Shown here piece by piece: positions 6,587-10,631 of a stretch of DNA of 10,631 nucleotides. The notes under the pieces are model-generated. The model was not told where the DNA came from. It made no database searches and saw only the letters and a program-made list of their open reading frames with translations. The translations under genes and the position numbers were made by a program. The DNA comes from a virus (Duplodnaviria > Heunggongvirae > Uroviricota > Caudoviricetes): the IMG/VR virus record IMGVR_UViG_648276652_000022. One strand, 5' to 3'. The stretch's first letter is position 1; each line of letters begins with the position of its first letter.

Positions 6587-6671
6587 GTTGCTAACGAATC
6601 ACCCTAGACTTTATATGCCCCAGGCGGCTACTTCGTGGGCGTCCTGCCTGTTCGTTGTTTCTCTTGGGTAC

Positions 6672-6699
6672 ATTATGTATCTCATGGGTACATTGTCAA
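6672..6699 (-). promoter_or_regulatory. Leftward early promoter pL (TTGACA-16 bp-CATAAT) with embedded operator TGTACCCATGAGATACA
   Basis: On the minus strand: consensus -35 TTGACA (plus 6694-6699), 16-bp spacer, -10 CATAAT (plus 6672-6677). The 17-mer at 6676-6692 fits the T-GTAY-N7-GTAC-A dyad pattern also found at OR. Confidence 0.55.
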
Positions 6700-6738: not shown

Positions 6739-7413
6739 TTAGGCTTTGATTTTGTATCTTCTTGGTTTTCCTGAGAAAATCACAGTTCCAATTATAGAGC
6801 AATTACCGTTGATCTTAATGTAAGGCTCAGGCCAGTTTGGGTTTAACGCTTTGAGATAACGCTGTGTCCCATCTTCTATCAACCTTTTGAAGGTGGTTTC
6901 ACCTGTATCGTGCATCAATGCAATAACGTCGTCACCGTGGCAGGCTGGTACTTCAGGATCGACAAAAATCATGTCTCCCGGGCGGTACTCATCAATCATT
7001 GAATCACCTATCACCCGCAAGATATAAGTCATTTCCCCACAGGGTACAGGGCAGGGATACGTTTCTGCTGTGCTCAAATCAACCTCAGAATATCCAACTT
7101 CTTTCCATGCTCCGGCCTGTACCCATGATATGACAGGGACTAATGTGATTTGTTTATTAGTGATTGAAACATCAGGTTTTTTTGTGATGTTCGTTGTCTG
7201 GTGTTCTTGATCGAGCCATCCAACAGGCAGGTCGAAACATTTTTCGATGTGTCGTGCCATGCTGTCACCGATATTTTTAGTAGCACCATCTCCCATAAAC
7301 CTGCTGGTCTGGGTTGGCTCGCGATCAATCATAGTGGCAAAGGAAGAATTCCCGCCAACACCATCTCTCAGTTTTCTGGCGTTAGACCGCCGGATGTCAT
7401 GGATTGTTTTCAT
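6739..7413 (-). CDS. CI-like prophage repressor (N-terminal HTH plus C-terminal S24 LexA-type peptidase domain), 224 aa
   Basis: 224-aa ORF with a GDSM serine motif and downstream KRL lysine typical of S24 autopeptidases; divergent from a Cro-like gene across an operator-bearing intergenic region. Appears leaderless (the -10-like TTTAAT lies directly upstream of the ATG). Confidence 0.88.
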   Translation of the reverse strand: MKTIHDIRRSNARKLRDGVGGNSSFATMIDREPTQTSRFMGDGATKNIGDSMARHIEKCFDLPVGWLDQEHQTTNITKKPDVSITNKQITLVPVISWVQAGAWKEVGYSEVDLSTAETYPCPVPCGEMTYILRVIGDSMIDEYRPGDMIFVDPEVPACHGDDVIALMHDTGETTFKRLIEDGTQRYLKALNPNWPEPYIKINGNCSIIGTVIFSGKPRRYKIKA

Positions 7414-7428
7414 AACGAAATTAAAACC

Positions 7429-7449
7429 CTTGTACCGTTAAGGTACAAG
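7429..7449. promoter_or_regulatory. Operator OR-a: 21-bp perfect palindrome CTTGTACC-GTTAA-GGTACAAG, overlapping the putative PRM spacer
   Basis: Perfect dyad read directly; core 17-mer TGTACCGTTAAGGTACA at 7431-7447. Confidence 0.6.
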
Positions 7450-7453
7450 TATC

Positions 7454-7497
7454 TTGAAGGTTCATTTTAATCATGTAATATGTACACCGGAGGTACA
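7454..7497 (+). promoter_or_regulatory. Rightward early promoter PR (TTGAAG-16 bp-TAATAT) with operator OR-b TGTACACCGGAGGTACA at 7481-7497
   Basis: -35 at 7454-7459, -10 at 7476-7481; the 17-bp dyad, with the same GTAC spacing as OR-a, overlaps the -10 and start region. Confidence 0.55.
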
Positions 7498-7735: not shown

Positions 7736-8305
7736 ATGAGGCTAACCGTGGGTAAGCATCACTGGAAAGTAGAAAAACAGCCTGAGTGGTACGTGAAAGC
7801 TGTCAGAAAAACTATCGCAAAGTTGCCGGGTGGTTACGCTGAAGCAGCTGACTGGCTGGATGTAACAGAGAACGCATTATTTAACCGCCTTCGTGCCGAT
7901 GGCGATCAGATTTTCCCGCTGGGATGGGCAATGATTTTGCAACGTGCTGGTGGAACTCACTTCATTGCTGACGCTGTGGCGCAGTCTGCAAATGGCGTCT
8001 TTGTGTCTCTTCCTGACGTCGAGGATGTGGACAACGCCGATATTAACCAGCGTCTGCTGGAAGTCATTGAACAGATCGGCAGTTATTCAAAACAGATTCG
8101 TTCAGCAATCGAAGACGGTGTAGTGGAACCGCATGAGAAGACAGCAATTAACGACGAGCTGTATCTCTCAATTTCGAAGCTGCAGGAGCATGCAGCACTG
8201 GTCTACAAAATCTTTTGCATTTCAGAAAGTAATGACGCCCGCGAGTGTGCAGCTCCGGGCGTCGTGGCGTCGATTGCTTCTGGTTGTGGAGAAACTAACG
8301 CATGA
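7736..8305 (+). CDS. Prophage regulatory protein, CII-like (CP76/YdaT-like family), 189 aa
   Basis: 189-aa ORF directly after the Cro-like gene. Family assignment is from recognition only. No Shine-Dalgarno before the ATG at 7736; the GTG at 7748 with GAGG 6 nt upstream is an alternative start. Confidence 0.55.
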   Translation: MRLTVGKHHWKVEKQPEWYVKAVRKTIAKLPGGYAEAADWLDVTENALFNRLRADGDQIFPLGWAMILQRAGGTHFIADAVAQSANGVFVSLPDVEDVDNADINQRLLEVIEQIGSYSKQIRSAIEDGVVEPHEKTAINDELYLSISKLQEHAALVYKIFCISESNDARECAAPGVVASIASGCGETNA

Positions 8306-9138
8306 ACAGTTTAACGGCAAATAACCGTTTGTCGCAACAGCTGGTGGTCAGCGTCGCTGAACACGTGTTGTTACGGCATGAATGCAGATTACCAAATCTC
8401 CTGGCTGTAAGTAACCACAGAGAACTTTACCTGACTGTGGGGGGCGAGTTGTGCAGGAACTTAACCGCTGGTTTCGTGACGGAAGAGGACTTTATGTTCA
8501 TGTTATTCGTTGGGAGCCAGAAACACAGCGCGTTATCTATCTTCGCAAAGACTACCCGCATGAGTGCTTTAGCCCTTTGTGGAAATTCAGGCGTGATTTT
8601 GTTGAGTGTGAAGGACCACCAGCACATTGATTCTGCCATTCCGGGACGTTACACTGTTCAGGCACCTTATAAAGCGGGTGCCGGGATTGGCGTCCTGGAA
8701 TTGATCAAGGCGATATATGACGCGCCAGCGTCTTTTTTATCGTCCGCATTTGCTCACATCAAAGTTATGGTGGGCTGGGCGGGGGCATCGAAAGATGCGC
8801 CGGTTTCCTTGATCACCGGTTACGCCAACCCCGTTCAGTTCACCACCAGCGAAATTGGCGTTTCCGGTGGTGGAAGTATTTCACCGATCAAGGAGGCTGC
8901 CATCATGGCTACTGTCCCAGCCCTCACTCGTCTGAATGATGAAGACTTACATAAACTCAGTTATGTAACAACTGCACTACGTGCTCTGCGCAAGGTAACT
9001 CTTTCGGATCCGCAGGCACATCAGGTTCTGGTAGAAACCCTTCTTAACTTGCAAGCTGAACGTATTCGTCTGGCGGATAAGGCTAATTTTCATATTCACC
9101 GTCTCCTGAATATCAGCGGAGGGCATCGTCATGCTTAA
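8302..9138 (+). CDS. Hypothetical protein (278-aa frame); the 5' part may be over-called, the 3' part (about 8631-9138) looks like genuine coding
   Basis: Continuous 278-codon frame with an ATGA overlap to the upstream gene. From about 8631 the codons look like typical E. coli coding sequence (GCG, GGC, GAA, ATC, AAA). An internal ATG at 8905 is preceded by AAGGAGG 8 nt upstream. Conflicts with a well-formed small ORF in another frame (8451-8630). Confidence 0.35.
   Translation: MNSLTANNRLSQQLVVSVAEHVLLRHECRLPNLLAVSNHRELYLTVGGELCRNLTAGFVTEEDFMFMLFVGSQKHSALSIFAKTTRMSALALCGNSGVILLSVKDHQHIDSAIPGRYTVQAPYKAGAGIGVLELIKAIYDAPASFLSSAFAHIKVMVGWAGASKDAPVSLITGYANPVQFTTSEIGVSGGGSISPIKEAAIMATVPALTRLNDEDLHKLSYVTTALRALRKVTLSDPQAHQVLVETLLNLQAERIRLADKANFHIHRLLNISGGHRHA
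8451..8630 (+). CDS. Small phage protein, DUF4222-like pattern, 59 aa, GTG start, in a different frame from the 278-aa ORF
   Basis: Hand translation: VQELNRWFRDGRGLYVHVIRWEPETQRVIYLRKDYPHECFSPLWKFRRDFVECEGPPAH, stop TGA at 8628-8630. It fits the small phage-protein pattern D.RG..V.V......RV.Y.R..Y..EC..P...F...F as I recall it. Absent from the ORF track (under 60 aa, GTG start). Confidence 0.4.
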   Translation: MQELNRWFRDGRGLYVHVIRWEPETQRVIYLRKDYPHECFSPLWKFRRDFVECEGPPAH

Positions 9139-9367
9139 TCCGTTGCTCCTCAACATTTACCGTTTATTTCAGCGTAAAAAAATATCAACACCCACAGTTG
9201 GGCAGTGGTACACCACGCCAGCAGGGCATGTTCTACGTGTCAGCCTGGTTGACTGTGAATGTCAGAAGGTGATTTGTGAACCGCTGGGCCGCAATTACCG
9301 CGTCAGTATGCCGCTTATTGCCTTTCGCTCCGGAAAAAACATGAAGCATCTCGGAGGTGCAGCATGA
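9131..9367 (+). CDS. Hypothetical small protein, 78 aa
   Basis: ORF overlapping the upstream stop (ATGCTTAA) and the downstream start (ATGA), consistent with a translationally coupled phage operon. No family recognised. Confidence 0.5.
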   Translation: MLNPLLLNIYRLFQRKKISTPTVGQWYTTPAGHVLRVSLVDCECQKVICEPLGRNYRVSMPLIAFRSGKNMKHLGGAA

Positions 9368-10178
9368 GTATGGAGCTGATGGTTAAAGCGATGAAAATTC
9401 GAGTGGGTAATCCATTGCGAAAACTGGTTCTGATCAAGCTGGCTGATAATGCCAGCGATCAGGGTGAGTGCTGGCCCAGCTACCAGCATATTGCTGACCA
9501 GTGCGAGATTAGCAAACGTTCTGTGATGAATCATATTGCGGCCCTTTGTGATTCCGGGCTGGTAAAAAAAGTCACCCGGAAAGGTGAAAAAGGTAACTCA
9601 AGTAATATCTATCTCCTTCATCTTGATGGTGCAGGAGATTCACTAGGGGGTAGTGCAAATAATTCACTATCTAGTGCAGCAAATTCACCAGGTAGTGCAG
9701 GAGTTGCACCAGGGGGTGGTGCAGGAGATTCACCCAGAACCAGTCACTCTTTTGAACCAGTCAAAGAACCAGTCAATGAACCAATAGCTGTTGGTGCATC
9801 TGCTGATGAGTCCGTGCGAGTTCGTTCAAACCGACCGGAATACTCTCCGGAGTTTGAGCAGGCATGGCTGGCATACCCCAAACGTGCTGGTGGCAATTCA
9901 AAATCTGCAGCCCTCAAAGCCTGGAAAGCTCGTTTGAATGAGGGGGTAAAACCCGAAACCATGCTGGAAGGTGTGAAACGCTACGCGGGCTGGGTATCTG
10001 CGATGGGTAACAGCGGCACACAATTTGTGAAACAGGCTGTCACGTTCTTTGGTCCGGATCGTCATTTCGAAGAATCCTGGGAAGTTCCTGCGGTATCTGC
10101 AGCCAGACGCGAGGACCCGTACTTCAAAGCCAGTTACGACAACGTGGACTACAGCCAGATCCCGGCAGGATTCAGGGG

Positions 10179-10182
<4 letters not shown>
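9364..10182 (+). CDS. Replication initiator (lambda O-like: N-terminal winged-helix DNA-binding domain, low-complexity linker, C-terminal domain), 272 aa
   Basis: The N-terminus (LRKLVLIKLADNASDQGECWPSYQHIADQCEISKRSVMNHIAALCDSGLV) is HTH-like, of the type seen in phage replisome organisers. The Gly/Ser/Pro-rich linker is encoded by iteron-like repeats. Position in the early-right operon fits. Confidence 0.7.
9629..9735 (+). repeat. Five dyad-symmetric ~17-bp iteron-like direct repeats (GTGCAnnAnnTnCAC) with 21-24 bp periodicity; putative origin of replication
   Basis: Copies start at 9629, 9653, 9674, 9695 and 9719 (for example GTGCAGGAGATTCACTA and GTGCAGGAGTTGCACCA). A second cluster of four GAACCA(G/A)T(C/A)A repeats follows at 9737-9787. 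All lie inside the initiator gene, as in lambda ori within O. Confidence 0.5.

Positions 10183-10631
<449 letters not shown>

Follow-up and report, generated by a model that had tools for sequence, protein, structure and literature searches.

The segment between positions 9627 and 9787, in the part of an initiator gene that codes for a disordered protein linker, is very probably the replication origin of a lambdoid prophage of the SfV/mEp460/Eru6 type, judging from its repeat organisation and from the comparison with homologues. The DNA analysed, a stretch of 10,631 nt that we refer to as the window, contains the left arm of this prophage (Table 1). A lambda-like origin inside an initiator gene is a known, textbook arrangement, and the useful additions made here are a box that is found family-wide, a code that relates the recognition helix of the initiator to its iterons, and the translation of iterons in two reading frames; novelty may be limited to the invariant 10-mer box. 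A probable origin is thereby placed for a replication module that is called uncharacterised in the searchable literature and that is carried by SfV, mEp460, cdtI, Eru6 Stx phages and thousands of related prophages. Since toxin gene dose follows phage replication, the control of replication bears on Shiga toxin output.

Table 1. Positions of genes, protein domains and DNA repeats in the window.
Feature	Position	Strand	Remarks
proA-like gene	1-1254
tRNA-Thr(CGU)	1369-1444
Integrase	1459-2622	minus	directly after tRNA-Thr(CGU)
S24-type cI repressor	6739-7413	minus
cro-like gene, CII/CP76 gene, Ash-family ORF	between cI and the small ORF 9131-9367
Small ORF	9131-9367		upstream of initiator ORF
Initiator ORF, 272 aa	9364-10182	+	Pfam HTH_36, phrog_270
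N-terminal winged-helix domain, residues 1-88	9364-9627	+	AlphaFold2 pLDDT 80-93
Recognition helix ISKRSVMNHIAAL	around residues 50-62		within N-terminal winged helix
Five-iteron array	9627-9735	.	motif matches, Tandem Repeats Finder, shuffles, family logo
Disordered linker, residues 91-158	9634-9837	+	AlphaFold2 pLDDT <50; carries overprinted iterons and box
Conserved box CCCAGAACCAGTCACTCTTTTGAACCAGTCAAAGAACC, about 40 bp	9733-9771	.	from last base of iteron 5
10-mer direct repeats	9737-9787	.	three exact GAACCAGTCA and degenerate GAACCAATAG
C-terminal effector domain, about residues 160-250	9841-10113	+	small, helical; separately mobile module
IS100kyp part	10395-10631	minus	IstB C-terminus readable

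The initiator gene and its prophage

The prophage sits beside a tRNA-Thr gene, in a tRNA site of the thrW type, and this kind of site is presumably also the one used by SfV-like serotype-converting phages. The order cI-cro-(cII)-initiator is the usual one around the initiator in mEp460 and cdtI. Directly downstream of the initiator, no gene for a helicase loader (P) or a helicase (gp12) was found in mEp460 or cdtI, where a gene assigned by PHROGs as 'transcriptional activator' and then a methylase gene follow; a loader or helicase gene is present in other members of the family, such as S1249 and phi24B. An IS100kyp element (IS21-family) is inserted at 10394/10395 of the window and cuts the gene 3' of the initiator, a homologue of mEp460_044 / SfV orf40 (PHROGs: 'transcriptional activator'). 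Because the gene after the initiator is interrupted in this way and homology to mEp460 ends at 10394, the prophage in the window may be defective.

The ORF at 9364-10182 matched HTH_36 (PF13730; residues 17-67) in a Pfam scan with an E value of 2.8e-11 and 43.5 bits, the cut-off being 25, and it matched phrog_270 'replication initiation protein' over residues 3-271 (1.1e-88). By these profile matches, the protein is a member of the HTH_36/phrog_270 phage replication initiators. Nucleotide identities of 98-99.5% were obtained with the replication genes of 2H10, mEp460, SfV (orf39), cdtI and many Stx2c phages, and the initiator gene of Stx2a_WGPS2 (AP012537), the type phage for the Eru6 replication region (PMC8951638), is 98.3% identical. 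Homologues amounted to 5579 clusters at E <=1e-10, with PF13730 in all matches listed.

A sequence-only reading of the window had described the protein as an O-like initiator. This description agrees with the HTH_36 and phrog_270 matches, but sequence does not place the protein in the family of lambda O and P22 gp18: there was no match to Phage_rep_O in the Pfam scan, and a relationship to the product of P22 gene 18, which is of nearly equal length (271 aa), was rejected since BLASTP gave an E value of 1.4, i.e. no similarity. A remote relation between lambda O and HTH_36 at the level of profiles has been reported (PMC5509034). The match of the initiator to DnaD_N reached 23.2 bits and was under the Pfam cut-off of 27, and searches of PDB sequences with the protein and with the family profile gave nothing significant and no match to DnaT or DnaD.

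The AlphaFold2 model of the N-terminal domain consists of four helices followed by a two-strand wing. When this model was submitted to Foldseek, all matches were winged-helix proteins (TFE, the N-domain of DnaD, MarR/ArsR), although they were weak (E >=0.019). The single winged helix is followed by a disordered linker and does not correspond to the WH1-WH2 architecture of the Rep_3/RepA type. Membership in that class of iteron-plasmid replicons was rejected for this reason, because the iterons lie inside the gene and because there are no nearby DnaA boxes: with one mismatch allowed, no DnaA box (TTATNCACA) was encountered from 8300 to the end of the window, and the total for the window was not above chance. 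The C-terminal domain, modelled with low confidence (mean pLDDT 55.6), matches phrog_26426 'replication protein' and the C-terminal part of phrog_1701 'DnaD-like helicase loader', and on the basis of these matches it presumably recruits the helicase. The same domain also occurs behind an unrelated N-domain in the Stx1a phage Stx1_14040. The initiator of that phage has about four copies of a 12-bp unit, CAGAGAATACWA, at 2451-2495, ahead of the shared domain, and is without the GAACCAGTCA box; these units are probably the iteron set of another origin type.

The iteron array

Exact matches to the motif GTGCANNNNNTKCAC (GTGCA-N5-TKCAC) are found at five sites, 9629-9643, 9653-9667, 9674-9688, 9695-9709 and 9719-9733, and the start-to-start spacings of 24, 21, 21 and 24 bp correspond to about two helical turns. 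The repeats are real. When one mismatch was allowed, 13 matches were counted on both strands of the window where 1.7 were expected, and none of 200 shuffles reached 13; the three matches outside the array are consistent with chance. Tandem Repeats Finder independently called the array (9629-9734, period 21, 4.8 copies), and neither this program nor the motif count revealed another repeat cluster of this kind in the window. The two half-sites are complementary at 4/5 positions in four iterons and at 5/5 in the fourth iteron, so that the dyads are imperfect, and family-wide the dyad extends to about 19 bp (T-R-GTGMA-N5-TKCAC-Y-A). As expected from the dyads, single-strand folding of the array gave a z of -2.0 when compared to shuffles. 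Iterons and 10-mers all lie inside the initiator ORF and encode residues 89-141. Both the five dyad repeats with a phasing of 21-24 bp and their location in codons for a flexible linker had been proposed before; the former was confirmed, and the latter is supported by the low AlphaFold2 confidence for residues 91-158.

About 155 homologues were compared. The sets comprised distant homologues from annotated phages, 80 near-identical IMG/VR contigs, 80 diverse prophages from GTDB genomes with N-domain identities of 66-86% (from genera that include Enterobacter, Pseudomonas, Proteus, Rahnella, Xenorhabdus, Marinomonas, Aeromonas, Shewanella, Vibrio and Avibacterium) and 80 IMG/VR contigs that were retrieved with nothing but the box pattern. 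Each homologue carries an individual dyad array, and the place of the array, directly after the winged-helix domain, is constant. Among the distant homologues, Vibrio phage D160, phi24B 'O' and Aggregatibacter S1249 carry different dyad repeats at an equal offset and with a 21/24 spacing.

Among 75 diverse arrays, the copy number ranged from 2 to 7, the spacing was 21-24 bp in 229/245 cases, and 275/320 iterons had 4 or 5 of 5 dyad matches. Spacings of 22 or 23 bp, which break the reading frame, accounted for 62/245, and 38/75 arrays have their iterons in more than one frame. Since this is so, the DNA and not the peptide is the repeating entity. For example, the iteron DNA GTGCAGGAGATTCAC is read as S-A-G-D-S-P in one unit and as V-V-Q-E-I-H-Q in the next one within a single protein, and a pair of 23 and 22 bp spacings restores the reading frame. 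Judged by these comparisons, selection acts on the iteron DNA and the peptide can vary; conservation of the amino acid linker alone, which the sequence-only reading had named as a refuting result, is the reverse of what the homologues show. With one iteron translated in two frames of a single protein, the overprinting of a cis-acting DNA element on a disordered linker is seen here with unusual clarity.

Iteron number in related prophages, the comparison suggested by the sequence-only reading, varied from 4 to 8. Five iterons were present in 78 of 83 near-identical phages, whereas 6, 7 and 8 were found in one each and 4 in two, the 8 iterons of cdtI being due to a 66-bp insertion. The last spacing between iterons is 24 bp in nearly all arrays.

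Covariation of the recognition helix and the iteron type

Residues 52-56 in the recognition helix of the initiator covary with the type of iteron. The helix x-R52-[ST]-[VA]-[MIVQ]55 goes along with iterons GTGNN...NNCAC (76 sequences), S52-T-V-K55 with GGGCR...TRMCC (14 sequences), [SA]52..R55 with TGCCR or TAGGC...RGCA (40 sequences) and T-T-A-I with GTRTA...TACAC (3 sequences). Helix class and iteron class agreed in 134/134 sequences from two independently gathered sets, a count that is not to be read as a probability because the sequences are related. Also, within the R52 class, the replacement of N56 by R56 is accompanied by GTGAY...GTCAC iterons. The one-to-one mapping is as expected if the winged helix binds its own coding sequence, and we infer from the covariation that the N-terminal domain would read the iterons. 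If so, helix residues 52-56 and the iteron half-site form a natural specificity code that is testable by residue swaps.

A conserved box with 10-mer repeats next to the last iteron

Exact copies of GAACCAGTCA occur only three times in the window, at 9737-9746, 9754-9763 and 9766-9775 (spacing 17 and 12), and a degenerate copy, GAACCAATAG, which matches at 7/10 bases, follows at 9778-9787. The four repeats of this type that had been noted earlier are therefore there as a cluster, but only three of them are exact. Translation of copy 1 gives R-T-S-H and that of copies 2 and 3 gives E-P-V, one DNA sequence thus serving in two frames, and close relatives carry 2-4 copies. When homologues were anchored on the 10-mers, a box, CCCAGAACCAGTCACTCTTTTGAACCAGTCAAtGAACC, emerged that is by far the most conserved DNA of the gene. 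The second cluster is no minor appendix to the iterons but belongs to the DNA that is conserved best throughout the gene family. The box at 9733-9771 contains 10-mer copies 1 and 2 and the GAACC with which copy 3 starts.

In most of the 75 diverse homologues, a 20-mer core of the box is present with 0-2 mismatches, and the hosts are Enterobacterales, Pseudomonas, Shewanella, Aeromonas, Vibrio, Marinomonas and Pasteurellaceae. The information content of the homologue alignment peaks from -12 to +27 around CACTCT. Where pairs of homologues had the same amino acid, the fraction of identical codons was 0.91 in the box, compared to 0.41 in codons 1-70 of the N-domain, and it reached 0.96-1.0 in most of the first ten codons of the box; this conservation of synonymous sites persists in GC-rich Pseudomonas hosts. 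Five Shewanella/Parashewanella prophages read the first half of the box in another frame (HPEPVTL in place of PRTSHSF). In all homologues, the box starts with the last base of the last iteron, and in the 80 IMG/VR contigs that were retrieved by the box alone it occurred once per contig, in each case behind an iteron dyad of the family. Prophages of Aliivibrio and Avibacterium have kept the 10-mers with a changed spacing, the Aliivibrio variant having three 10-mers at 12 and 14 bp spacing and then an A-rich run. Because these variants alter the spacing, the repeated 10-mer and not the spacer is the constant part.

We tentatively propose, at somewhat less than even chances, that the 10-mer box is a sequence-specific and previously undescribed origin element, common to a very large family of gammaproteobacterial prophage origins, which would be recognised by an invariant surface of the HTH_36 initiator or by a conserved host replication factor and would set where the strands open or the helicase is loaded. 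No description of the box was found in the searchable literature, and a full-text search for the 10-mer returned only unrelated primer sequences. If the proposal is true, one short DNA probe identifies the origins of thousands of prophages, including Stx phages of the Eru5, Eru6 and phi24B types, and the box offers a way to search for the common host factor; it could be used directly as a probe in origin annotation and in a pull-down of its binder. The small ORF at 9131-9367 was considered as a binder of the box, but distant family members do not conserve it and the idea was rejected.

Conservation of the box might have causes other than a part in the origin, for it might be kept as an mRNA signal (a C-rich, G-poor Rho-utilisation site or a boxA-like CUCUUU), as a peptide, PRTSHSFEPVNEP, that binds a partner, or as a patch for recombination between N- and C-terminal modules. 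Such causes, an RNA role included, are unlikely even when taken jointly. What fits them is that the box is the exact junction at which the module of N-domain and iterons is joined to at least eight unrelated classes of C-terminal domains, each paired with several iteron classes, that its top strand contains few G (5 in 38 nt) and is without structure, and that the EPVxEP part of the peptide is in frame in all variants; the CTCTTT of the box also resembles what we take to be the core of boxA. However, a peptide motif explains neither the identity at synonymous sites nor HPEPVTL in the place of PRTSHSF, and if the box were only a recombination patch, it would have diverged between Pseudomonas and Pasteurellaceae, as its saturated flanks have. 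That the last iteron is always equally far from the box speaks for a joint DNA architecture, and survival of the unit when spacer and spacing change is typical of a protein-binding DNA repeat. A reading of the box as a hairpin or other RNA structure was rejected, since its folding is no more stable than that of shuffles (z of -1.0 and +0.3 for the two strands). From 9300 to 10300 no promoter-like site and one terminator-like site, a number at chance level, were detected, and the box thus gave no indication of an internal promoter.

Two further observations concern the box region. A perfect 10-nt inverted repeat pairs N-domain coding DNA at 9423-9432 (ACTGGTTCTG) with the start of the box at 9735-9744 (CAGAACCAGT); a function for it was rejected and the match ascribed to chance, codons K20-L23 not being conserved at synonymous sites. 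Initiator ORFs of only 118-133 aa occur in prophages of Pseudomonas bharatica, Erwinia tracheiphila and Mixta. Those of Pseudomonas bharatica and Erwinia tracheiphila stop within or just after the box, and in Erwinia tracheiphila the box is frame-shifted with a stop right behind it. Such short ORFs are probably decayed prophage copies, and frame slips in the repeat region seem to be a common route by which the initiator gene dies.

A model for the probable origin

According to the model that we favour, dimers of the N-terminal winged helix would bind the five dyad iterons of about 19 bp. Because the phasing of 21-24 bp keeps the iterons on one face of the helix, an O-some-like wrapped complex could be formed. 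The box with its GAACCAGTCA repeats would be the common part of the origin that is independent of specificity, most likely the site of duplex opening or a positioning site for a conserved partner, for which an invariant initiator surface or a host factor are candidates. The exchangeable C-terminal domain would then bring the helicase, and since no loader or helicase gene follows in the SfV/mEp460 lineage, the helicase would have to be the DnaB of the host. Early rightward transcription is expected to pass through the origin, as in lambda.

A strongly AT-rich tract is absent beside the iterons (GC 42-47% over 9720-9800), and the unwinding site is thus not obvious. Just 3' of the box, the family mean of AT is only 0.59-0.66; an A-rich run does follow the box in some homologues (Shewanella, Aliivibrio, S1249). 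This lack of a strong unwinding tract by the array, together with the lack of DnaA boxes nearby, would suit iterons that are bound by the initiator for autoregulation, handcuffing or exclusion (as a transcriptional roadblock or an element for copy number and incompatibility) while replication starts elsewhere, and iterons of plasmids serve copy control as well. Nevertheless, we regard such a purely regulatory function as improbable: the architecture agrees with that in lambda and P22, in which iterons constitute the origin, the array forms a fixed junction with a second strongly selected element throughout the family, and the window offers no other such repeat cluster.

It is hardly credible that the repeats arose as a functionless side effect when a low-complexity Gly/Ser/Ala/Pro linker expanded through tandem duplication, as the single frame of the five window iterons (multiples of 3, encoding (G/S)-A-x-x-S-(L/P)-(G)), the predicted disorder and the shifts of copy number by whole units might suggest, because this is contradicted by the frame-hopping of the arrays with their 22/23 bp spacings and unrelated peptides and by the fixation of box codons at synonymous sites, and it accounts neither for the dyad symmetry of each unit, which peptide constraint does not explain, nor for the covariation of the motif with the recognition helix.

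Records of 38-48 kb that were deposited as plasmids also carry the initiator family, namely from E. coli, Klebsiella, Microbulbifer, Shewanella and many from Arsenophonus nasoniae. These records likely represent phage genomes in an episomal state, or phage-plasmids, with an origin of this family.

Comparison with known replication systems

The predicted origin follows the lambda arrangement of ori within O, as had been supposed from the window, with dyad iterons inside the initiator gene. In lambda, the iterons and an adjacent tract lie in the middle of gene O, and lambda O as well as the Stx phages 933W and P27 (six iterons) share with the present family an origin in mid-initiator gene, dyads of about 19 bp and a phasing of about two turns (PMC7466680). 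Similarly, a second origin element is situated directly to the right of the iterons in lambda, and the number of iterons differs between relatives (PMC7466680). The division of labour in lambda O, with an N-terminal domain for origin specificity and a C-terminal one for contact with the replication partner (PMC7466680), may by analogy apply here. Unlike lambda, the present initiator has HTH_36 and not Phage_rep_O, the box of direct repeats is of moderate AT content where lambda has an AT-rich tract, and no P-like loader gene comes after the initiator in the phage lineage of the window.

P22 and phage L each have their own iteron set inside gene 18, in the lambdoid early-right operon (PMC8022706), and for P22 gene 18 a rep_origin is annotated in NC_002371. 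Unlike the present case, their initiators are from a different protein family, and gene 18 is followed by gene 12 for a DnaB-type helicase. The P22 iterons (ACCNRATCGGTAAAA-like) are succeeded by an A-rich tract, and there is no GAACCAGTCA box; GAATCAGTCAAA in the P22 origin was rejected as a counterpart of the box, because it is the degenerate fourth P22 iteron.

The Eru6 region of Stx2a_WGPS2 has been described as encoding an HTH-domain protein near cI (PMC8951638), and this Eru6 replication region is the initiator gene of the window. Eru typing was done by gene content only, without iterons or origin, and the replication of Eru phages was called unknown (PMC8951638). In the searchable literature, we found no prior description of iterons in initiators of the SfV type and no experiment on binding or origin function in the family. 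The 2006 review of phage replication modules by Weigel and Seitz may mention such iterons and may list initiator-only modules.

DopC, a domesticated O-like HTH_36 protein of Cellvibrionales/Oceanospirillales, combines an N-domain of the lambda O type with a C-domain unlike that of lambda, and according to its authors dopC has no iteron-like sequences and is not an origin (PMC5509034). In contrast, iterons and box are present and under selection in the initiator gene of the window.

Short direct repeats also specify strand opening and the engagement of single-stranded DNA in the DnaA-trio/DUE next to the DnaA boxes of oriC and in the 13-mers of RK2-type origins. The 10-mers might be likened to these elements as short direct repeats by initiator sites, although their unit is 10 nt and not 3 or 13.

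Other elements of the early region

An Rfam scan of the window gave no match in the origin region, all matches being elsewhere. Two of them lie on the plus strand inside the Ash-family ORF at 8302-9138, isrK at 8662-8738 (64 bits) and a C4 antisense RNA at 8763-8850 (82 bits). Together they make up an antirepressor module under antisense control, in the style of P1/P7, in the lambdoid early-right operon just upstream of the replication genes.

Four 17-bp palindromes of the form TGTAC-N7-GTACA are located at 6656-6692 and 7431-7497, a number that was reached in 0/200 shuffles. One pair is in tandem downstream of cI, and the other is in or near the cI-cro intergenic region, with one palindrome at the start of cro. 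From their sequence and position, these palindromes look like candidate repressor operators, OL-like and OR-like.
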